NCBI GenBank assembly: GCA_051747585.1
Contig: JBNJGH010000050.1
Location: forward strand, 1 to 23,334
DNA: 23,334 bases
Source of the DNA: Candidatus Rifleibacteriota bacterium
GTDB taxonomy: Bacteria > Muiribacteriota > Ozemobacteria > Ozemobacterales > Ozemobacteraceae
Direction: 5' to 3'
Made by a program: the position numbers and the translations under genes. The number at the start of each line of letters is the position of its first letter. The first letter of the stretch is position 1. Shown piece by piece: positions 8,779 through 18,374 of the stretch. The notes below the pieces were generated by a model that was given only the letters and a program-made list of their open reading frames with translations, had not been told where the DNA came from and did not search any database.

Positions 8779-10395
8779 ATGAAAAGGACAATAGTTGTTT
8801 TTATTACAGGATTTTTGCTTGTTACTTCATTTGCGCATGCTTCTGAAGTGTTTTTAATGTTGGTAAACAAGAATAAGGGAAAAGTTTACCGCATGAAGAC
8901 CGACAATCAAGTTAGAAGACCACTGGGATACTTTTTTGCTTGTGATGCCGCCGATGATTTTTACATCGATAATTTTAAAGATTTTAGAATGCTTCGTTGC
9001 GAACAGACAGAATTTTCTAACAAGTGTGAAAGTTCAATATTCAGACAAGTAAATGACTCAGAGATTAAAAATAAAAAACTCCTTATTCATAATGATCAAA
9101 GAAACCAGCTTATTGAAGGGAGTCTGGCTATGCCGGTTTTCTGTCATAGAAGTTATCCTCTGGGCGCGGGTCCGGGAGTTCCGGTAAAAGCTGAGATTGC
9201 ACTCAATTCAATTGCCGAAAACATTTTGCAAACAATAGATAATAAACAATGGTATCGCATACCCAATGGATCCTGGTACAGAACCTGGTTAAAACCCCAA
9301 CATAATGAGGACGGTTACTTAGTTTATTATGACGAATGGCGAGAACAGCCGCTGGAAATAAAAGAAAGTTTCTGGAGAGGAGAATTTCCGGGTAAAGCTG
9401 TTGAGAGAGGAGTATTTGAACTATCTTCAAAGTCGCTTTTCAGAATTGCTGTGAACGAAAACCTGCAAATTAACCCTCAATTTCCTTCCAAGTTTACTGT
9501 TGCCAGGACAAATGAGAGATTTTCAAGCTTTTTCAAGCCCGGTAAGAACCTGAATAAAGGTGAGTTACTTCTATATTCATGGGAAAAGAATGAGCCGGGT
9601 AAATTTGAAGTTATTGGTAGTGACGACAACTTTAGCAAAGCGTTTGAATCAATATCATCTCATAAAAGATTTGCTGCAATAGGACATAAAAAAATATTTG
9701 TTATTGGTAGTGATATTCTTAAAAAGTGGCTTTATGAAGCTGGTATCGACAACGAAAAAGCAGAGAGTACACTCGCCTGTTTCAAAGAAGGAGCAGATGG
9801 AAAATCTGTTCTGGTTGCAGTCTATTCAGAGCCGGATTCAACTCTTTTCAAATTTAGATACAATGAAGAACTAAATGTCCTGGACCCGAATGTGGTCAGT
9901 ATCAAATTAGATTTAAAACCCGATGCAATATCTTTTGACAAGAATGCAAACCTGCTGGTTGCAGCAGTAGAAGAGAATGAAGTTGAATTTTTCAAGAATG
10001 TTCAGCCCGGGTACGAAGTTGAAACCACCTATTTTAATTCGGAAGTGCCTCTGGGAAAATTTTCAGAAGAAAAGAATGCCTATGTGGACGTTAATATTCC
10101 TGAAGCGCTGGATGGTGGTTTTATCTTTTCTCAGGGCTATCATGAAAATCTTTACCTTGTTGACAAAAATACTTCCAAATTTTCACTTTTGCACTCGATT
10201 AATTTAAAGAAAAATTATTTTTGTCGCGAATTTACTTTGTATAACGCTTCAGAGAAAGTTCTAGGTATGGATTATGAAGAACTTATGAAAGTTGCCCGAA
10301 AATCGGGAAACTATCTTAGTGAAATAAAGACAGAGGTTCCCGATTTTCCTGATCAGTTTAAAAAACCCGAGAAAGTTTTTATTGCAACTTTCTAA
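8779..10395 (+). CDS. Hypothetical exported protein
   Basis: 538-aa ORF with RBS GAGGGG and a Sec-type signal peptide (MKR, hydrophobic core, AHA/SE). A possible extended -10 TGATATTAT lies at 8736-8744. No family recognised. Confidence 0.75.
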   Translation: MKRTIVVFITGFLLVTSFAHASEVFLMLVNKNKGKVYRMKTDNQVRRPLGYFFACDAADDFYIDNFKDFRMLRCEQTEFSNKCESSIFRQVNDSEIKNKKLLIHNDQRNQLIEGSLAMPVFCHRSYPLGAGPGVPVKAEIALNSIAENILQTIDNKQWYRIPNGSWYRTWLKPQHNEDGYLVYYDEWREQPLEIKESFWRGEFPGKAVERGVFELSSKSLFRIAVNENLQINPQFPSKFTVARTNERFSSFFKPGKNLNKGELLLYSWEKNEPGKFEVIGSDDNFSKAFESISSHKRFAAIGHKKIFVIGSDILKKWLYEAGIDNEKAESTLACFKEGADGKSVLVAVYSEPDSTLFKFRYNEELNVLDPNVVSIKLDLKPDAISFDKNANLLVAAVEENEVEFFKNVQPGYEVETTYFNSEVPLGKFSEEKNAYVDVNIPEALDGGFIFSQGYHENLYLVDKNTSKFSLLHSINLKKNYFCREFTLYNASEKVLGMDYEELMKVARKSGNYLSEIKTEVPDFPDQFKKPEKVFIATF

Positions 10396-10397
10396 AA

Positions 10398-10889
10398 CTA
10401 ACTTAGCTCTTGAATCATTTGCTCCAGCTCTTCGTCTTCAAAAGGTATATCCTGGGCTTCTCTAATCATAAAAACAAGTTTTTTTAGTTCAAGATCGGAG
10501 ATATCACCTTTTTCAACTGAACTGTTTTTCGCTGCTTCTTCTTGTAGAAGCTTCTTTATGAATTTTTCTCTTGTTTTTTGATCGGTAATAGCCTGATAGA
10601 TTTTTTCTGCCAGGACATTAGGATCTACCAATTTATAGGTGCCGTTCTGCACCTGTTTCGTAATCTCCTGCAATCGCTGCATTCGATTCACTTGCTGTTG
10701 TTGAATAATCTTGAGATTATTCTGTGCCGGATTCAAACGGGCGGTATTTGCTCCCGCTTTTTCACTTCCGGAGCTTTTGTTTTTTAAGGTTTTATCAAAA
10801 GAATCGGTTTTATTGCCGGTTTTTTCTTTTCCCTTTGGTTTAGTTGTTATTATTATTCTTTTTCCAGGTCCCTTGATGGAATCAACCAT
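10398..10889 (-). CDS. flgM: FlgM-like anti-sigma-28 factor with C-terminal extension
   Basis: Low-complexity K/S/T-rich N-half, then R69-MQRLQEITKQVQNGTYKLVDPNVLAEKI-97, which matches the FlgM C-terminal signature (R.ekv..lk..i..GtY.vd...iA.k). RBS AGGGAG and a sigma28-like promoter lie upstream. Confidence 0.68.
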   Translation of the reverse strand: MVDSIKGPGKRIIITTKPKGKEKTGNKTDSFDKTLKNKSSGSEKAGANTARLNPAQNNLKIIQQQQVNRMQRLQEITKQVQNGTYKLVDPNVLAEKIYQAITDQKTREKFIKKLLQEEAAKNSSVEKGDISDLELKKLVFMIREAQDIPFEDEELEQMIQELS

Positions 10890-11070: not shown

Positions 11071-12954
11071 TTGTATAAGAAAATATATGCAGCTGTTTTT
11101 ATCTATATACTGGTTGTTTCATCACTTTGTAGTGCATCGATCGGTAAGGTTAAAAACATATTTACTCAGGGTGAAAAGGCTTTTCAACAGCATAATTACA
11201 GCTTGGCATCCAAAAAATTTGCCCAGGCTGTTAAGCTTGATCCCGACAATCCGAGAACCAGGTTTCGTTATGGCCAGGTACTATTTTCGCTTAATAATTA
11301 TTCAGCTAGTTTAAAACAGTTTCAGAAGGTTCTGCTTAAATCGCCCAACAATATTAATGCCAGAATATTTTTATGTGAAAATATGCTGAGATTGCAAAAA
11401 GCCCAGGAAGCAAAAGCTCATCTTGAATGGATATTAAAAGTTCAACCCGGTCATCAAAAAGCTGAAAATTTGCTTGAACAGTTAGGCAATAATGATTTTT
11501 CGCCAAAATCGAATGATATAAGTAGCAGCGCTAAGTTTGAAAAAGAAGAAATTCCCTCTGGATTTCAGCCTTTGCCAGTTAAAGATGCAGATAATGCCAA
11601 AATAAATAAGAATACACAGGAAAGGGAAATGAAATCGGATTCATTAAGAAGAGAGAAAAAGTTGGCTGCAAGCGCTGATAATAAAACTCTGCCCCCTGAA
11701 GCTTATGAATCTGAAACATGGCAAATTGTCGATTTTTTGCAGCAGAGTTCAGAATCTTTCCTGGTTAACCTTGAATATGCACGCTATGCAATAGAAAAAG
11801 ACAGCCTTAAAGTTGCTTTAAAAAAGCTTAAAAAAGCCAACAAACTTGCGAAAAATTCCCAAAATACAAGAAAGTTTCTTGAGGTACAGATACTAACAGG
11901 AATGGTGCATATCTATAAAAAGGATTTTCCTGCATTTGGTCAGCAATTGATGAAACTCAAAAATATGTTGTCTGACGAATCTTATAAGTCATTTTTAAAC
12001 ATTTATAATCAGGCTAACGCTATAAGAGAAGAAGCAGAAAAGAACAGACTTGCCGCAGGAATTGCCATGGGAGCAGGGCACTATGCCGTTGCCGCGCGCT
12101 TGCTCCGGCAGGCGGTAGAATACAGGCCAGATGATATTCTTTTATTAAACCTGCTTGCCGAAGCTCAAATGCAAAACCTCGATTACAAAAGGGCAGAAAA
12201 TACTTTACAAAAAATTGCTCACATAAATCAAAAAAATTCTGAAGCTTATTTCAATCTTGCCAGGTTTTACCTTACAGCTGTTTATAAACCCGAAATGGCG
12301 AGAAAGTGTGCCGAATATGCCAAATCAATTAAATCTAATGACCCCAGATTGTCAGTTATTCTGGCTTTGCTCGATTATGCCGAAGGTAAAATCGAGACAG
12401 GTGTTGCCAGATTGGAACAATTGTTACCTCAACTTAAAGATAAAGGTTTTAAAGCTGTTTGTAATAGAATAATAAATGATGGTCGCTATGCCGACAGCAA
12501 AAGAGGTTCAGAACAGGTCGATTTTGCGCGAATTATGGCACTTCCCGGCGCCACACACGCATCAATTGACAGTTATGGTCTTGTTGCCGCAGATTCTCTT
12601 AAAAGAGGGTCTTTTTTTACTGCCATGAAATATTTTCTTAAAGCACGAGATCTGGCAGAAATAGGTCGAACCTATCTGGGGCTTTCTTCAGCATTATATA
12701 CCGGTGGCGAAAAAGAAGCTGCTGCCACAGCTGCCGGATTTGGCTTAAAAGCTTTAAATGACGAGCTGACAAAGACTCCAACACATCCCGGGGCAAATTT
12801 ATATCTGGCTCTATATTATTTTGAGCGCAACGAATTTACTCTGGCAGATAATGCAATTAAAAAAGGATTGACAGGAATGGGAGACAGAAGCACAAGAAAA
12901 CGTCTGACTTCTTTGCTCGATACCTTGAATAAGACTCTTAACAGAAAATTTTAA
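11071..12954 (+). CDS. Exported tetratricopeptide-repeat (TPR) protein
   Basis: TTG start with GGAGG RBS and an N-terminal hydrophobic signal. TPR-like helices (FAQAVKLDPDNPRTRFRYGQVLF, FQKVLLKSPNNINARIFL, NSEAYFNLARFYL, HPGANLYLALYYF) are separated by a charged linker. Possible promoter TTGATT-16-TATAAA at 11020-11047. Confidence 0.85.
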   Translation: MYKKIYAAVFIYILVVSSLCSASIGKVKNIFTQGEKAFQQHNYSLASKKFAQAVKLDPDNPRTRFRYGQVLFSLNNYSASLKQFQKVLLKSPNNINARIFLCENMLRLQKAQEAKAHLEWILKVQPGHQKAENLLEQLGNNDFSPKSNDISSSAKFEKEEIPSGFQPLPVKDADNAKINKNTQEREMKSDSLRREKKLAASADNKTLPPEAYESETWQIVDFLQQSSESFLVNLEYARYAIEKDSLKVALKKLKKANKLAKNSQNTRKFLEVQILTGMVHIYKKDFPAFGQQLMKLKNMLSDESYKSFLNIYNQANAIREEAEKNRLAAGIAMGAGHYAVAARLLRQAVEYRPDDILLLNLLAEAQMQNLDYKRAENTLQKIAHINQKNSEAYFNLARFYLTAVYKPEMARKCAEYAKSIKSNDPRLSVILALLDYAEGKIETGVARLEQLLPQLKDKGFKAVCNRIINDGRYADSKRGSEQVDFARIMALPGATHASIDSYGLVAADSLKRGSFFTAMKYFLKARDLAEIGRTYLGLSSALYTGGEKEAAATAAGFGLKALNDELTKTPTHPGANLYLALYYFERNEFTLADNAIKKGLTGMGDRSTRKRLTSLLDTLNKTLNRKF

Positions 12955-13041: not shown

Positions 13042-13071
13042 TTGCAATTTAATATTATTTCTCATTATAAT
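13042..13071 (+). promoter_or_regulatory. Putative sigma70 promoter of the receiver/HEAT-CheR unit
   Basis: TTGCAA (13042-13047), 18-nt spacer, perfect TATAAT (13066-13071). Confidence 0.5.
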
Positions 13072-13111
13072 CAGCTTTTAAGATTCCAGAATTTCCGGAG
13101 GATTCCTAACA

Positions 13112-13498
13112 ATGGCCAAAACAATATTAGTGGCTGAAGACTCCCTGATGTTGCGCAAAGTTGCCTGTTTCCCGCTTGAAAAAGCCGGTTACAAGGTGCT
13201 GGAAGCCAACAATGGTATCGAAGCCATTGAAGCAATGTCAAAGAATGAAGTCGACATAATCATTACCGACCTTAACATGCCTGGGATGGATGGATTTGAG
13301 TTAATTACCCAGGTTAAGGAAAACGAAAAGTTCAAACACATACCCATTATTATTTTAACCACCGAAGGTAAAAAAGAAATGGTTATGAAAGGATTGACAC
13401 TTGGTGCTAATTCTTTTCTTCAGAAACCCATTAAACCTGATTTAATGCTGCAGGAAGTCGAACGTCTTCTTGGTAAAGCATCTGGAAAGGGGAGCTGA
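13112..13498 (+). CDS. Single-domain response regulator, CheY-like
   Basis: Intact receiver residues E9-D10, phosphoacceptor D53 (TDLNMPGMDG), T83 and K105-P106, with no output domain. RBS GGAGG. Confidence 0.92.
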   Translation: MAKTILVAEDSLMLRKVACFPLEKAGYKVLEANNGIEAIEAMSKNEVDIIITDLNMPGMDGFELITQVKENEKFKHIPIIILTTEGKKEMVMKGLTLGANSFLQKPIKPDLMLQEVERLLGKASGKGS

Positions 13499-13500
13499 TT

Positions 13501-16500
13501 ATGACAAGTTCATCCGTATTACTTGAACAATTACAAAATTCAGATCCCGGACAGCGCAGAAAAGCAGTAAGAGAGCTGGCTAATTTTCCAGAAGACAAAG
13601 AAGTAATTCAGGCTCTTTGTCAGGCTTTGGGCGACCCTAACAAAGGCGTTCAAAATATTACCATTGACTCTCTCTCCAGAATGCGCCATGAAAATGTTGT
13701 TCATGGTCTTATACCTGTAGTTCGAAGCTCCGATTTAAACACAAGAAACTCTGGTATGTCTGTACTGCGCAATCTGGGGCCAATGACCATATCGCCCTTG
13801 ATCGAGACAGTTAAAGAAGCAAAGGATGTTGATGAAATCATTCAGATTCTGGTTATTCTTGGTGACATAGGCTCTCCATTGGCAACCGGCACTGTTATAA
13901 GCTTCATCGATCATGAGGATGACAATGTTAAGACTACAGCGGTTGAATCTCTTGGTAAGATTCAAGATCCGGAAGCAGTAGATGTTCTTATTGAAACCTA
14001 TAAAAATACTGACATTCTCAAATATTCCATAGTTGAGGCTCTTGGTAACATCGCAGTTGAAAGCGCTATGCCAATACTTCTCGGCGCTCTGGAATCTGAA
14101 GATATTCTTGAGTATTTTACCGGCATAGGTGCTCTTGGCTCCATGGAAAGCCCCGAAGGCATAGATCCTCTTTTTAAAAAGCTGCAAAAAGAAGATGACA
14201 GCGGAACTCGAAGATTGATTCTAAAATCGCTGGCGCAGATCGAAGAAGCCAACCCGGGAAGTCTCAAGAAGATTGATAAAGATACTTTAAGACCTATTTT
14301 GACTAGTTTACTTGAAAACCAGGATGCTGCAGAATATCGCTTTATGGTAAAAGTAGCCGCTTCTGTTGAAGATGAGGCTTATACCGAAGCTTTGATCGCT
14401 GCGTTACAATCATCCGAATATGAAATTGTCGAAATTGCTTTTTCCGGTTTGCAGAATCTTGGCAAAAAAGCCGTTAAGCCTGCCCTTGATAAAATTGGCA
14501 GAGTTGAGCCACCAGTAGCTGTTAAACTTCTCGAATTCCTGGCTCAGCACCCAAGCAGCGAAATACCTGCAGCGGTTTCTCTTTTTGCTCAGAATCCGGA
14601 AGACAGTTTGCGTCAGGCTCTGGCAAAAACTCTCGGAGCAAACCCGTCAGATACTTCATTCAATACTTTGAAAGATTTATTGAATGATCCTGATGAAACC
14701 GTAAGAAAATTTGCGGTAATGAGCATCTCGAGTATGCTCGACTATGATGGAGCATTAACCGCTCTCATCAGTAAGTTTAAAGACATTAACGGTCACGTTA
14801 GAAGAGAAGCTGCTCTGGCTCTGGGTAACTCCAATTCAAGCCAGCTGGTTGAACCGCTTTTTAATGTTATTACCACTGAACCCTATGGCGATGTCAGAGA
14901 AGCAGCAGCTTCGGTTCTGGCACGACGCAAAGATCCCGAAATTACCAAAAGACTGCTTGAACTTCTTGACAGCGACAATTCAAGAATTCGCGAAACTATT
15001 TCACGCACTATCTGGCAATGTGGTTCAACTCACGCGGTTGATTCTCTTATTCAGAAATTGAATGACAAAGAATGGCGTGTAGTAGTTAATTCCTGTAAGT
15101 CACTTGAAAAGGTTAAAGACCTTAAGTCTATTTTCCCGCTTAAAGAACTGCTTAAAAATGGTGACTGGCAGATTAGAATTTCAGCTCTTTCAGCTCTTAG
15201 AGCATTTCAGAGCAAAGAACTCAAACAGTTCTTTATTCCTCTGCTGGCAGACGAAAATGCACAGGTTGCCAAGCTGGCAGTAGTTGCTTTAAGTGAGCTT
15301 GGTGATAAATCTCTGGATAAAGATTTCCAGAAATATATTGACCACTCTCGCTGGGAAGTCAGATATCAAATCGTTAAAGCACTCGGAAGTATCAAAAGCC
15401 AGTCCAGCGTAAAAACTCTTATCAATCTGGTTGACACAGATAAAAACAATGCTGTGCGTTCCAGAGCAATTCTTACACTGGCAAAAATTGGCGATAAAAG
15501 CGCTTGTGATACTATCTTAAAAGTGCTTGACAGCGAAGATCAGAACCTGGTTGTAGCCGGTATCAAATTCTTCTGCGACTCTGGTAACACTGACTATGAC
15601 AATCTTGAAGAAAAAATTGAAGACATATTCCTTAAGCGTCCCTGGGTTAAAGATTATTTTATTCAAACTTTTGCTCAGAACAAGTCTGCATTTTTGGAAA
15701 AAGTGCTTAAATCAGTTATCGCCCCAAGACAGGCCAGATATATCGATAGAACCAGAGATATCAAAGTCGAAGATACCGGAATTAATCCTGAAGAAGCTTT
15801 GCTTCTCAGAGATATAATTTCTAATCTGTGCGGTATTGAAATTAACGATAAAAAACAGCTCGAACAAAAATTGAGTAAAAATCTCGGACGTTTCTTCATC
15901 ACCTCATGGATAGAATATTATCATGCTCTGAGATATGGTGCGGTTGAAGGCGATGACCTGCTTATAAGTCTTTATGACTCTATAACTGATCCTTCCACCG
16001 AATTCTTTGGCGAAGCCGAACAGAGTCAGGTGCTTGTTTCTACAATCATTCCGGGACTCATCGAAGAAAGAGCCAAAGAAAACGTCGATGAGATCAAGGT
16101 TCTTTGTTGCGGTTCATCTTTTGGTCCCGAGGCTTTCTCTGTGGCAATGAGTGTTCTCGAAGAAGTTCATTCAGATAAAGCAAGAGTAACCGTAACAGGT
16201 ATAGATATTTCTCATATCTGTCTTAATACCGCTAAAAGAGCAATATACAAAAGAGAAATGTTCAGACAGGTAGACCAGAAATACATCGACCTTTATTTTG
16301 AAGATGATCGCGGTGATCTCAGAGTTAAAGATGAAGTCAAGAACCTGGTAGAATTCAAGTTTACCAATACGGTAAACTCTGAAGCCATGGAGCAATTAGG
16401 TGAGTTTGATGTGGTAATCTGCCGAAATGTCTTTTCCAGATTCTCGCATAGGGCTAAAGAAAAGATGGCCGAAAATATTTACAACATTCTAACTCCCGGT

Positions 16501-16599
16501 GGAGTTCTGCTCATTGGTGGTTCAGAAACTCTGTATAATGTAACCAAAGCTTTCAGATTACAGACCTTCGACAAGGTTGTCGCTTACAAAAAGCTTTAA
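13501..16599 (+). CDS. HEAT/PBS-lyase-repeat protein fused to a C-terminal CheR-type methyltransferase domain
   Basis: About 700 aa of HEAT-like repeats (LNDPDETVRKFAV, DINGHVRREAALALG, DKEWRVVVNSCKSL, SRWEVRYQIVKALG). From about aa 760 a CheR-like domain follows: TEFFGE, CCGSSFGPEAFSVAM, GIDIS...AKRAIY, FDVVICRNVF, LTPGGVLLIGGSETL. Confidence 0.85.
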   Translation: MTSSSVLLEQLQNSDPGQRRKAVRELANFPEDKEVIQALCQALGDPNKGVQNITIDSLSRMRHENVVHGLIPVVRSSDLNTRNSGMSVLRNLGPMTISPLIETVKEAKDVDEIIQILVILGDIGSPLATGTVISFIDHEDDNVKTTAVESLGKIQDPEAVDVLIETYKNTDILKYSIVEALGNIAVESAMPILLGALESEDILEYFTGIGALGSMESPEGIDPLFKKLQKEDDSGTRRLILKSLAQIEEANPGSLKKIDKDTLRPILTSLLENQDAAEYRFMVKVAASVEDEAYTEALIAALQSSEYEIVEIAFSGLQNLGKKAVKPALDKIGRVEPPVAVKLLEFLAQHPSSEIPAAVSLFAQNPEDSLRQALAKTLGANPSDTSFNTLKDLLNDPDETVRKFAVMSISSMLDYDGALTALISKFKDINGHVRREAALALGNSNSSQLVEPLFNVITTEPYGDVREAAASVLARRKDPEITKRLLELLDSDNSRIRETISRTIWQCGSTHAVDSLIQKLNDKEWRVVVNSCKSLEKVKDLKSIFPLKELLKNGDWQIRISALSALRAFQSKELKQFFIPLLADENAQVAKLAVVALSELGDKSLDKDFQKYIDHSRWEVRYQIVKALGSIKSQSSVKTLINLVDTDKNNAVRSRAILTLAKIGDKSACDTILKVLDSEDQNLVVAGIKFFCDSGNTDYDNLEEKIEDIFLKRPWVKDYFIQTFAQNKSAFLEKVLKSVIAPRQARYIDRTRDIKVEDTGINPEEALLLRDIISNLCGIEINDKKQLEQKLSKNLGRFFITSWIEYYHALRYGAVEGDDLLISLYDSITDPSTEFFGEAEQSQVLVSTIIPGLIEERAKENVDEIKVLCCGSSFGPEAFSVAMSVLEEVHSDKARVTVTGIDISHICLNTAKRAIYKREMFRQVDQKYIDLYFEDDRGDLRVKDEVKNLVEFKFTNTVNSEAMEQLGEFDVVICRNVFSRFSHRAKEKMAENIYNILTPGGVLLIGGSETLYNVTKAFRLQTFDKVVAYKKL

Positions 16600-16610
16600 A
16601 TAAATCCTTT

Positions 16611-16647
16611 AAAAAGGGGCTGGCCATAAACGGCCGGCCCCTTTTTT
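16611..16647 (+). terminator. Intrinsic (potentially bidirectional) terminator
   Basis: AAAAAGGGGCTGGCC-ATAAAC-GGCCGGCCCCTTTTTT, starting 11 nt after the HEAT-CheR stop. Confidence 0.88.
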
Positions 16648-16682
16648 GTTTTCTTATAAATAAAAGTGTTAAAAGATTAAAA

Positions 16683-16810
16683 ATTGCTTCTTCGTGATGC
16701 TCGTCGCAATGACCAAAAACCATTTCCGGGTCTCTTCGACCCGGGCGACTCGCAATAGCGAGTCATTGCGAGGAGTTCTGCGAAGCAGAACAACGAAGGA
16801 ATCTGAGATT
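16683..16810. repeat. GC-rich palindromic REP/RPE-like element
   Basis: ATTGCTTC...TCGCAATGAC (16683-16713) and its inverted counterpart GTCATTGCGAGGAG...ACGAAGGAATCT (16762-16804), plus three internal hairpins. It resembles the widespread GTCATTGCGAG...GCAATC intergenic repeats. Confidence 0.65.
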
Positions 16811-16925
16811 CTTGACACTGTTTCTAAAAACAAATAAAGAATTACTTCAAACTTTGCTGCGGTGCTTCTATTTAAAAGCTTTTTCTGCTATTATTATGCA
16901 CAAATAATTTGAGGGAGAGTTTTAG

Positions 16926-18374
16926 ATGGAAGCAAAACAAAGGGTATTGGCGTTTTTTGTTCTTGCCGTAACGTTGTTAACTGGCTGTAGTCTCGGTGGT
17001 GACGATGGAGACTCAACCGGACCCGTAGTTCCAACTGAATATGTTACCCTGTCCGGAACCTTGACCGCACCGGAGCAGATAGAGTCTTCACTTATTGCTA
17101 ATTTGCTACAAAACACCGATTCACAGGTAAGAGACGCTTTTGATGATTCAGCCGTCTTTGTTAATGGAGCACGAAACAGTAATTTTACTCTTAACCCCCT
17201 TTCATCAACTCCAAACTGGTCGTTCAGGCTCCCCAATGTGGCAAAAAGCAGTAACGATAAATATAGAGTCGAAGTAACAGTGGGTAAAATTAATCTTAAG
17301 TCTCTGGTAACATCGGCCAACAAAGATAATTTCAAAATAAACACTCAAACTACCGCTTCATTGATGCTTGCAGATGCTACCGGCATGTCAGTCGAAAACC
17401 TGCTTGCTTCTTACCCTTCATTTGTGACCGACGTCGAAGCAAGTCTTATAGACGCTTCAAAACAGAATTCAGAAATAATTAACTCTTCTATAGTAAAAAT
17501 TGCTTCGGTCACTGAAGAAATAAATAATCAGAAAAGTTTTATTACTGACCTGCAGGGAATTGAAACAACCGCAAAAGTTGCTTACCTTGAGTCTGAAAAC
17601 GACCTTGATGGTGATGGAATTATAGATGTTAAAGTTGAACCCAATACTTATGGAACCAGAGTAAGATTTTATACCGCACTTTCAAGTGCTACTTCATTTC
17701 TTGAAGGCATAGAAACAATCCAGGGTTATACTGACGATAGGTTATTGCAGGATTTCGATCAGGGACTTACCTCTGCTACAAGGTTTTTTTCGCCCCAATC
17801 GGCTGATTTTGCTCTAGGCCTATATTTTAAAAAGTCCGCCGCAGCTGACGAATATCTTAAGCTTTTTGTCAGACGAATAGATTTAGATGAGGGTGAGTTG
17901 CAGGGGGTAGTGGCCGAATATGAAATAGTTAAAACCGAGACTACCGCAATAGCTACCGGAACCAAAACCTTTATGCTTGTCGGCGAGACTCCGGTAGAAG
18001 GAGCAGTTGTGGCCTCTAATTTTATTACAGACACTGAAGAAACCGGGCCCTATGTTATGTCGTTCTTAAGCGCAGCTGACGGGCTTGGTAACAATGAAAC
18101 CCCTATGGTTAAATACCTTCAGGGAAAACCGGAGTTGAAAGATATAACAGCTGCAGAAACTTATCTTGCAGGTGGCGGTAATTATTATTACAACACCACA
18201 GAGGCTTTAAAAGCGTCTTATAATGACCGTACCATCGAAGTTGACGATGTTTTTTATGCCTACTTCCCCAGCAGTAAGAATTATGCTTTGTTTAAAATCC
18301 AATGGATAGATACAGATCGAGTTACCGTTGATTATGTGGTTAATTCTGCAGAAAATGAGCCAAGATTTAACTGA
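16926..18374 (+). CDS. Hypothetical lipoprotein
   Basis: Lipobox LTGC (Cys21) after a hydrophobic core, flexible GGDDGDSTGP linker, Ca-binding-like DLDGDGIID loop, and RBS GGGAG. Confidence 0.8.
   Translation: MEAKQRVLAFFVLAVTLLTGCSLGGDDGDSTGPVVPTEYVTLSGTLTAPEQIESSLIANLLQNTDSQVRDAFDDSAVFVNGARNSNFTLNPLSSTPNWSFRLPNVAKSSNDKYRVEVTVGKINLKSLVTSANKDNFKINTQTTASLMLADATGMSVENLLASYPSFVTDVEASLIDASKQNSEIINSSIVKIASVTEEINNQKSFITDLQGIETTAKVAYLESENDLDGDGIIDVKVEPNTYGTRVRFYTALSSATSFLEGIETIQGYTDDRLLQDFDQGLTSATRFFSPQSADFALGLYFKKSAAADEYLKLFVRRIDLDEGELQGVVAEYEIVKTETTAIATGTKTFMLVGETPVEGAVVASNFITDTEETGPYVMSFLSAADGLGNNETPMVKYLQGKPELKDITAAETYLAGGGNYYYNTTEALKASYNDRTIEVDDVFYAYFPSSKNYALFKIQWIDTDRVTVDYVVNSAENEPRFN

Follow-up and report, generated by a model that had tools for sequence, protein, structure and literature searches.

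A Conserved Operon in Ozemobacteraceae Pairs a CheY-Like Receiver with a HEAT–CheR Fusion That Lacks the CheR Catalytic Residues

Two adjacent genes in a 23,334-nucleotide (nt) stretch of DNA from a Candidatus Rifleibacteriota bacterium (GenBank assembly GCA_051747585.1, contig JBNJGH010000050.1; hereafter the window, whose coordinates are used throughout) encode a single-domain CheY-like receiver and a HEAT-repeat solenoid fused to a CheR-like domain. The receiver gene (13112..13498, + strand) is an open reading frame (ORF) of 128 aa, and it is separated by 2 nt from the fusion gene (13501..16599, + strand), an ORF of 1032 aa with 77 homologues at 56% identity or more over the CheR part. These homologues rule out an assembly artefact. 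An earlier reading of the window from its letters and ORFs (the sequence-only reading) had described the same two-gene unit, and the ORFs, the 2-nt gap and the domain assignments it gave were all recovered here, as were the positions of the three residues it singled out.

The receiver matches Pfam Response_reg (PF00072, E = 6.5e-29), and its phosphorylation residues E9, D10, D53, T83 and K105 are intact and invariant in 16 aligned sequences. It thus carries the acidic pocket, phospho-accepting Asp, Thr and Lys that define a single-domain receiver. Across five genomes the receiver is 85–93% identical, compared with 86–94% for the flagellar CheY, 73–78% for GyrB and 56–71% for ribosomal protein L13; we therefore dropped the view that ultra-conservation sets the receiver apart, since the flagellar CheY is conserved to the same degree.

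The fusion protein's N-terminal part is a HEAT alpha-solenoid (13510..15753, + strand; residues about 4–751) with roughly 22–24 helix pairs in an all-helical model, matched by Pfam HEAT_2 in 8 stretches (E = 3e-83). It is built of two conserved blocks (residues 1–280 and 361–640) with a variable stretch between them, as seen in the number of invariant columns along its length (49/280, 1/80 and 52/280 for block, linker and block, respectively). The predicted full-length structure has a pLDDT of 90.2 and a pTM of 0.84, which suggests that the solenoid and the CheR domain hold a defined mutual arrangement.

The C-terminal CheR-fold domain (15781..16596, + strand; residues about 761–1032) matches Pfam CheR (PF01739) at residues 832–1022 with E = 1.4e-40 and 139.2 bits against a cut-off of 27, while CheR_N is not listed by Pfam for the fusion at E≤0.01; the score against the NCBIfam CheR equivalog, 88.6, lies below the cut-off of 435. 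Compared with the CheR structure 1af7, the predicted domain gives a Z score of 23.5 and a root-mean-square deviation (RMSD) of 2.9 Å over 252 residues, whereas the next structure that is not a CheR gives a Z score of 13.4. The two-domain CheR fold is present, including the beta-subdomain insertion.

The domain lacks equivalents of R98 and Y235. Gap-free alignment pairs G837 (nt 16009) with the xFR-motif Arg of the P. aeruginosa and B. subtilis CheRs (in P. aeruginosa CheR1, TTNETLWFRD is the counterpart of TDPSTEFFGE) and pairs CRNVFSRF with CRNVMIYF of Salmonella CheR, so that R980 (nt 16438) corresponds to Y235. In the numbering of 1bc5, anchored on D154 and Y235, residues E877, D902 (nt 16204), R941, N956, R975 and R980 correspond to E129, D154, R197, N212, R230 and Y235, respectively; the Salmonella R98 stretch falls outside the 1bc5 alignment, and the pairing of G837 with R98 is drawn from the alignments with the P. 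aeruginosa and B. subtilis CheRs together with the CheR motif. In CheR, E129, N212 and R230 have cofactor roles. The available excerpt of one study names R98 and Y235 as key catalytic residues, with R98A abolishing swarming (PMC3447774), and an excerpt of a second also lists R98, Y235 and D154 as key residues (PMC5907407). Positions and alignment agree with the sequence-only reading, in which G837 and R980 were active-site deviations and D902 was kept.

Loss of these residues extends to the whole set of 77 orthologues. Position 837 is occupied by Gly (60), Ala (6), Asp (3), Ser (3), Cys (2), Arg (1), Leu (1) and His (1), and position 980 by Asp (48), Ala (15), Val (6), Ser (4), Asn (2), Arg (1) and Thr (1). 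Arg980 thus occurs in one member and is no family feature; what is conserved at 980 is the absence of Tyr. Both catalytic residues occur together in none of the 77, the sole carrier of Arg837 lacking Tyr980. For comparison we used the 148 non-family sequences among the 150 best-matching representatives (the outside CheRs), of which 144 have Arg at the R98 site (versus 1/77), 145 have Tyr at the Y235 site (versus 0/77) and 142 have both. Of the positions that at least 80% of outside CheRs conserve, 36 are kept in the fusion, including T833, G871, E877, D902, N956 and R975, and nine are lost, namely R98, Y235, the adjacent Ile and six others. Because the two defining residues fail, we do not class the fusion as a CheR.

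These losses make it very improbable that the protein works as a normal, if perhaps slow, chemoreceptor methyltransferase to which a HEAT domain has been added. Such a role would account for a Pfam CheR score far over the cut-off, for the name CheR given to the protein in some databases, for the retained net positive charge of helix alpha2 (+2.5 versus +2.1) and for the receptors found in every family genome. However, 76 of the 77 orthologues have lost both catalytic residues and the remaining one has lost one of them, the six further CheR-conserved positions are gone as well, and the host genome (labeled G000; C numbers denote its contigs and L numbers denote fetched loci) already has CheRs with intact motifs, one paired with cheB at C29 and a lone one at C47.

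The cofactor pocket has fared differently from the catalytic positions. Residues T833, G871, E877, D902, N956 and R975 are kept in 77/77 orthologues, the equivalent of N92 is Pro in 73/77, and the predicted domain superimposes on the C-terminal domain of CheR1 bound to S-adenosylhomocysteine (SAH; 5xlx) with an RMSD of 1.8 Å and a TM score of 0.91. Binding of S-adenosylmethionine (SAM) or SAH is therefore likely to be retained, as judged from the invariant pocket. The domain has 36 lineage-specific invariant positions of its own, among them C907 (nt 16219–16221), five residues past the SAM-binding Asp and present in 77/77 orthologues versus 3/148 outside CheRs.

Within the protein, invariance peaks in the beta-subdomain region (16204..16344, + strand; residues 902–948), which includes C907 and the motif EDDRGDLR (residues 934–941) and in which 25 of 47 columns are invariant in the 77 orthologues; the outside CheRs vary at most of these columns. 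In enteric CheR the beta-subdomain binds the receptor pentapeptide through R197, according to the available part of PMC5907407. The equivalent residue, R941, is invariant in the fusion, but the beta-loop is shorter than that of Salmonella by four residues. The domain is under purifying selection, with dN/dS of 0.020–0.056 in 8 pairs (dS 0.4–2.2, partly near saturation), which rules out gene decay. In five genomes, 101 of its 277 columns are invariant, versus 52 of 292 in the intact, cheB-linked CheR. A domain that has lost its catalytic residues and yet is about twice as conserved as a working CheR must therefore have another role that selection maintains.

We lean, with some reserve, toward reading the unit as a pseudo-methyltransferase scaffold under the control of the receiver, with SAM/SAH binding predicted to persist. 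That the two catalytic positions vary freely points to loss of the chemistry, the invariant pocket to retained cofactor binding, and the invariant beta-subdomain to a fixed protein partner. The sequence-only reading had set a pseudo-methyltransferase beside a methyltransferase retargeted to a non-receptor substrate, and of the two we favor the pseudo-enzyme because the former catalytic positions hold 8 and 7 different residues among the 77 orthologues. An active enzyme whose substrate is presented by the solenoid and whose activity is switched by the phosphorylated receiver is unlikely, although it deserves to be taken seriously. The intact pocket also fits such an enzyme, as do P876, L868 and C907, the new invariant residues near the pocket, and to that extent both count against our preference; the intact fold and the lineage-specific invariant positions also speak for it, and small residues in place of Arg and Tyr would be expected to widen the substrate channel. 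A new specificity would, however, usually fix residues, and the residues accepted at the former catalytic positions are of mixed charge. Moreover, the strongest new conservation lies on the surface of the beta-subdomain, and there is no linked substrate-like gene, the commonest neighbor besides the receiver being found in 32/51 loci and missing from the others.

The receiver and the fusion form a conserved operon. In all 43 loci that contain the start of the fusion gene, the receiver lies immediately 5′ of it (the other 7 of 50 loci are truncated there). A sigma70-type promoter candidate, TTGCAA-18-TATAAT (13042..13071, + strand), matches the consensus at 10 of 12 positions. Promoter-like sites in the window by itself occur at chance level (12 found versus 11.1 expected), and support for this candidate comes from its conservation across related loci and not from the match within the window: among 42 loci (one of 43 had too little upstream DNA), TATAAT lies 5′ of the receiver in 41 and TTGCA..TATAAT in 33, and a looser pattern, picked after the sequences had been viewed, is found in 42/42 loci versus 13/2100 shuffles. 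A ribosome-binding site, GGAGG (13097..13101, + strand), is kept in 42/42. Downstream, an intrinsic terminator candidate (16611..16646, + strand) has a hairpin z score of −5.75, and 44 of 46 related loci (4 of 50 were dropped as truncated) also have a hairpin with z<−2 after the fusion gene, though not of the same sequence. The strong terminator proposed by the sequence-only reading is thus supported, as is its promoter candidate once related loci are compared. Three RNA libraries yielded short contigs that fall on the fusion gene only, with none on the receiver.

None of the 16 window ORFs scanned with Pfam is a cheA, cheW, cheB or methyl-accepting chemotaxis protein (MCP) gene, which is what the sequence-only reading had reported for the window. 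The same four gene types were not found in 50 related loci (30 of them at least 16 kb long), while the same queries matched 6 to 61 of 80 control loci. The other neighbors vary. The commonest are a gene for a tetratricopeptide repeat (TPR) protein (11071–12954, + strand), in 32/51 loci, and a FlgM-like gene (10398–10889, − strand; Pfam E = 7.6e-6), in 28/51; in five loci the TPR gene and the receiver are separated by three other genes. Three window ORFs (179–505, 8779–10395 and 16926–18374) have no match in Pfam or NCBIfam, the second and third being found in 19/51 and 22/51 loci, respectively. A palindromic dispersed repeat lies just 3′ of the terminator (16670–16830); the first 40 BLAST rows include partial copies from more than 25 contigs.

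The module is confined to one family in the searches made here. Relatives that have names are mostly Candidatus Riflebacteria or Ozemobacteraceae assemblies. The CheR domain of the fusion was found in 48/51 family genomes, the three misses being 83%, 69% and 74% complete, and the receiver is single-copy in 47/51 at 85–100% identity; these genomes are kin and do not constitute independent samples. Outside the family, the receiver is absent at E≤1e-28 from 36 other genomes of the phylum, and none of 16 such genomes has a full-length match to the fusion. When 1.84 billion representatives were searched with a profile, just 2 matches came from the family, with the next score at 215 bits versus 495. 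The homologue search proposed with the sequence-only reading thus recovered the same architecture and CheY neighbor in almost every family genome sampled. In two assemblies we noted a second, 5′-truncated copy of the fusion (L092:8001-9269 and L093:8001-9269, residues 610–1032), about 80% identical in nucleotides to the full-length copy of that assembly and abutting unrelated genes on the opposite strand; a mobile-element junction, mixed bins or misassembly could each explain these copies.

To place the module among known systems, we compared it with HEAT and CheR proteins from other lineages. Among 31 longer or top-scoring matches chosen from 150, nine are HEAT–CheR fusions with an N-terminal HEAT region as here (P0094, P0129, P0156, P0169, P0178, P0207, P0222, P0223 and P0236), and both catalytic residues are kept in all nine; at 608–875 aa they have roughly half the solenoid of the present protein. 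P0094 is itself a CheR–HEAT–CheR protein, and P0095, P0097 and P0204 are tandem CheR–CheR proteins. The top match for the window protein in the ESM Atlas is a cluster of 98 HEAT–CheR fusions, most commonly from Myxococcota.

With one HEAT–CheR fusion as query, we fetched 80 cluster loci. Where contigs are long enough, these have the order cheY-cheA-cheW-(mcp)-cheW-(receiver)-HEAT-cheR-cheB-cheY, with HEAT and cheR as unfused genes and with the kinase, adaptors and cheB present, unlike the unit described here. The HEAT gene lies directly 5′ of cheR in 51 of 55 cluster loci with at least 700 nt upstream, a proportion that is biased because the loci were fetched with a HEAT–CheR query; this is the separate-neighbor arrangement that the sequence-only reading had mentioned for some deltaproteobacterial chemosensory clusters. 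The cluster HEAT proteins (mostly 650–740 aa where complete) are colinear with fusion residues 1–690 at 23–27% identity (E down to 5e-42) and share register-specific motifs with the solenoid, such as RN82-83, D140-N142 and W618-R621. The cluster CheRs are the highest-scoring relatives outside the family, reaching 211 bits with the fusion profile versus 192 for the best single-domain library representative, and all 78 full-length cluster CheRs have both catalytic residues. The receiver and the cluster CheYs have the pattern EDS/TTEG/LGAN/KPI in common. We take the labels "F10" and Geobacter "beta group" to apply to these clusters. By locus tags, the gene order matches che8 and resembles che7 of Myxococcus xanthus, with two untabulated genes before cheR8 in the accessible portion of PMC3945109. 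One FastTree run groups the fusion CheR with the HEAT-associated CheRs (support 0.93), and an unfinished IQ-TREE run gives a similar topology without supports. Gene order and sequence similarity make descent of the two-gene unit from a Che7/Che8-like chemosensory cluster likely, although the trees, taken up again below, disagree.

Several described systems resemble the module in part. M. xanthus Che7 likewise uses a single-domain receiver and a HEAT protein as output, with Cpc7 binding CheY7 (in the available text of PMC11514114 and PMC9040617), and cheR7 sits in the same cluster (in that of PMC3945109). Che7, however, forms a complete cluster with CheA, CheW, Mcp7, CheR and CheB, and its HEAT protein and CheR are separate; the likening of Cpc7 to the fusion solenoid is by description and not by alignment. 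CheR–TPR fusions (WspC, FrzF) also join a CheR to an alpha-solenoid, although of TPR and not HEAT type. Four N-terminal TPR–CheR proteins that also lack R98 and Y235 are proposed to be inactive, according to an excerpt of PMC3447774; those are scattered sequences, whereas the HEAT–CheR fusion is lineage-wide, strongly conserved and accompanied by a dedicated receiver. OE2401F of Halobacterium is a HEAT_PBS protein that acts with Che proteins, and the available portion of PMC2666748 describes such a haloarchaeal protein as needed for flagellar switching. It is archaeal, consists of HEAT only and lies within the che region, and we liken it to the fusion by repeat type. Searches of the open-licence literature turned up neither HEAT–CheR fusions nor the present module. 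The sequence-only reading had put the module forward as a candidate for an undescribed one, which holds for that literature, but the parts are already known, and the HEAT–CheR architecture and a degenerate solenoid–CheR both have precedents.

The unit stands alone by position, as the sequence-only reading had it, but not within the genome, which encodes cheA, cheW, cheB and intact cheR elsewhere, together with five MCP matches. A check of G000 for che and MCP genes and a canonical cheR, also suggested with that reading, found a flagellar cluster with cheY, cheA and a gene for a protein that joins a histidine phosphotransfer (Hpt) domain to CheW, besides the two cheR loci already mentioned. The lone cheR (L017:6230-7270, + strand; G000:C47) encodes 347 aa with a C-terminal extension of about 65 aa and lies outside any che cluster. 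Two lone cheW genes, L019:6520-7038 (− strand; G000:C44) and L018:7093-7572 (− strand; G000:C17), were also seen, one of them divergent with a partial Pfam match and one canonical and adjoining ribosomal protein genes. A 415-aa HEAT-repeat gene (L015:4990-6237, + strand; G000:C20) is convergent with the end of the flagellar che operon, and the host genome has more than 20 HEAT-like ORFs. In two family genomes there are also larger che clusters (L100:7729-14871 and L101:293-16059) that contain cheB, a short HEAT gene, intact cheR and cheY; these were set aside as a direct source of the module, the HEAT proteins being 303 and 356 aa with a best E of 4e-8.

MCP and CheW matches occur in 51/51 family genomes, and an attempt to argue from the absence of receptors that the module is independent of them failed on that count. 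The unit might instead serve flagellar chemotaxis as a phosphate sink or timer, in which the scaffold sequesters or dephosphorylates a second receiver and the CheR domain serves only as a tether near the receptor arrays. The universal presence of MCPs and CheW would fit this role, as would a receiver as conserved as the flagellar CheY, the invariant R941 at the position of the pentapeptide-contact residue and the requirement for the haloarchaeal HEAT_PBS protein in switching. Against it stand the operon's own promoter candidate, the lack of any che gene in the 50 related loci and the shortened beta-loop. NWETF is a receptor tail motif, and a tail of this kind occurs in 0/5 MCP frames of G000. 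On this evidence we regard the sink or timer as quite improbable.

The source of phosphate for the receiver was approached through the kinases of the family. Exactly one match to the CheA dimerisation domain was found in 21/51 genomes, and the receiver is present in 20 of those 21; in G000, where its location was checked, the single CheA lies in the flagellar cluster. The module therefore persists without a kinase of its own. A 502-aa protein encoded after the flagellar cheA (L015:6234-7742, − strand; G000:C20) has an N-terminal CheA-like Hpt and a C-terminal CheW without a CheA dimerisation match, and CheW matches in frames of about 500–600 aa occur in many family genomes; the 502-aa protein may belong to a phosphorelay or an array and could serve as a donor for the orphan receiver. 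Two of the 28 HisKA kinases of G000 were checked for presence across the family and were rejected as family-wide donors (37/51 genomes at E≤1e-55, 31/51 at E≤1e-70). Co-folding of the receiver with fusion residues 1–700, which do not include the CheR domain, gave a score of 0.00 in two runs and counts neither for nor against binding.

Under the pseudo-methyltransferase reading, the unit would be a remnant of the HEAT–cheR–(cheB)–cheY end of a Che7/Che8-like cluster from which kinase, adaptors, receptors and methylesterase have been lost. The receiver would be phosphorylated in trans, most likely by the CheA of the flagellar cluster, and the phosphorylated receiver would bind the HEAT solenoid as CheY7 binds Cpc7. 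The CheR domain would no longer methylate receptors; its invariant beta-subdomain may dock on the solenoid or a different protein, and SAM/SAH occupancy would act as a stabilising or regulatory input. Receiver control of the fusion and the sensing of SAM are steps that we infer. A more specific version, in which the pseudo-CheR reads the SAM/SAH ratio and the solenoid, clamped on the beta-subdomain, gates the output of the phosphorylated receiver, strikes us as rather doubtful.

Several results pull the other way. In a second FastTree run the fusion CheR falls outside the HEAT-associated clade on a long branch, and the tree that links the receiver to the cluster CheYs does so with a support of 0.65; because the trees disagree and the placement of the receiver is weak, descent from such a cluster is put no higher than likely. 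The query bias in the HEAT–cheR neighbor count bears on the same point. The receiver scores 100 bits with the cluster CheYs and 101.6 bits with 3dge chain C, the closest solved receiver, which we take to be Thermotoga RR468, the partner of an ordinary histidine kinase. Since this score is like that of the cluster CheYs and G000 has 28 HisKA matches, CheA need not be the donor. Finally, because all 51 genomes have MCPs, the role of the module may yet be related to receptors.

CheR is regarded as an enzyme dedicated to receptor methylation, and the fusion carries that label in databases. The function of Che8 is given as unidentified in the available portion of PMC9040617, and the two-gene minimum found here, with the recurrent HEAT–CheR fusions, offers a handle on the role of HEAT proteins in Che7/Che8-like clusters. 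Both proteins are predicted to be soluble, so that they could be expressed and assayed without the organism. If the pseudo-CheR does read SAM/SAH, a CheR would have been converted from an enzyme into a metabolite sensor, HEAT proteins of Che7/Che8-like clusters would generally bind and regulate CheR, and a chemosensory cluster would have collapsed to a two-protein core throughout the Ozemobacteraceae lineage.

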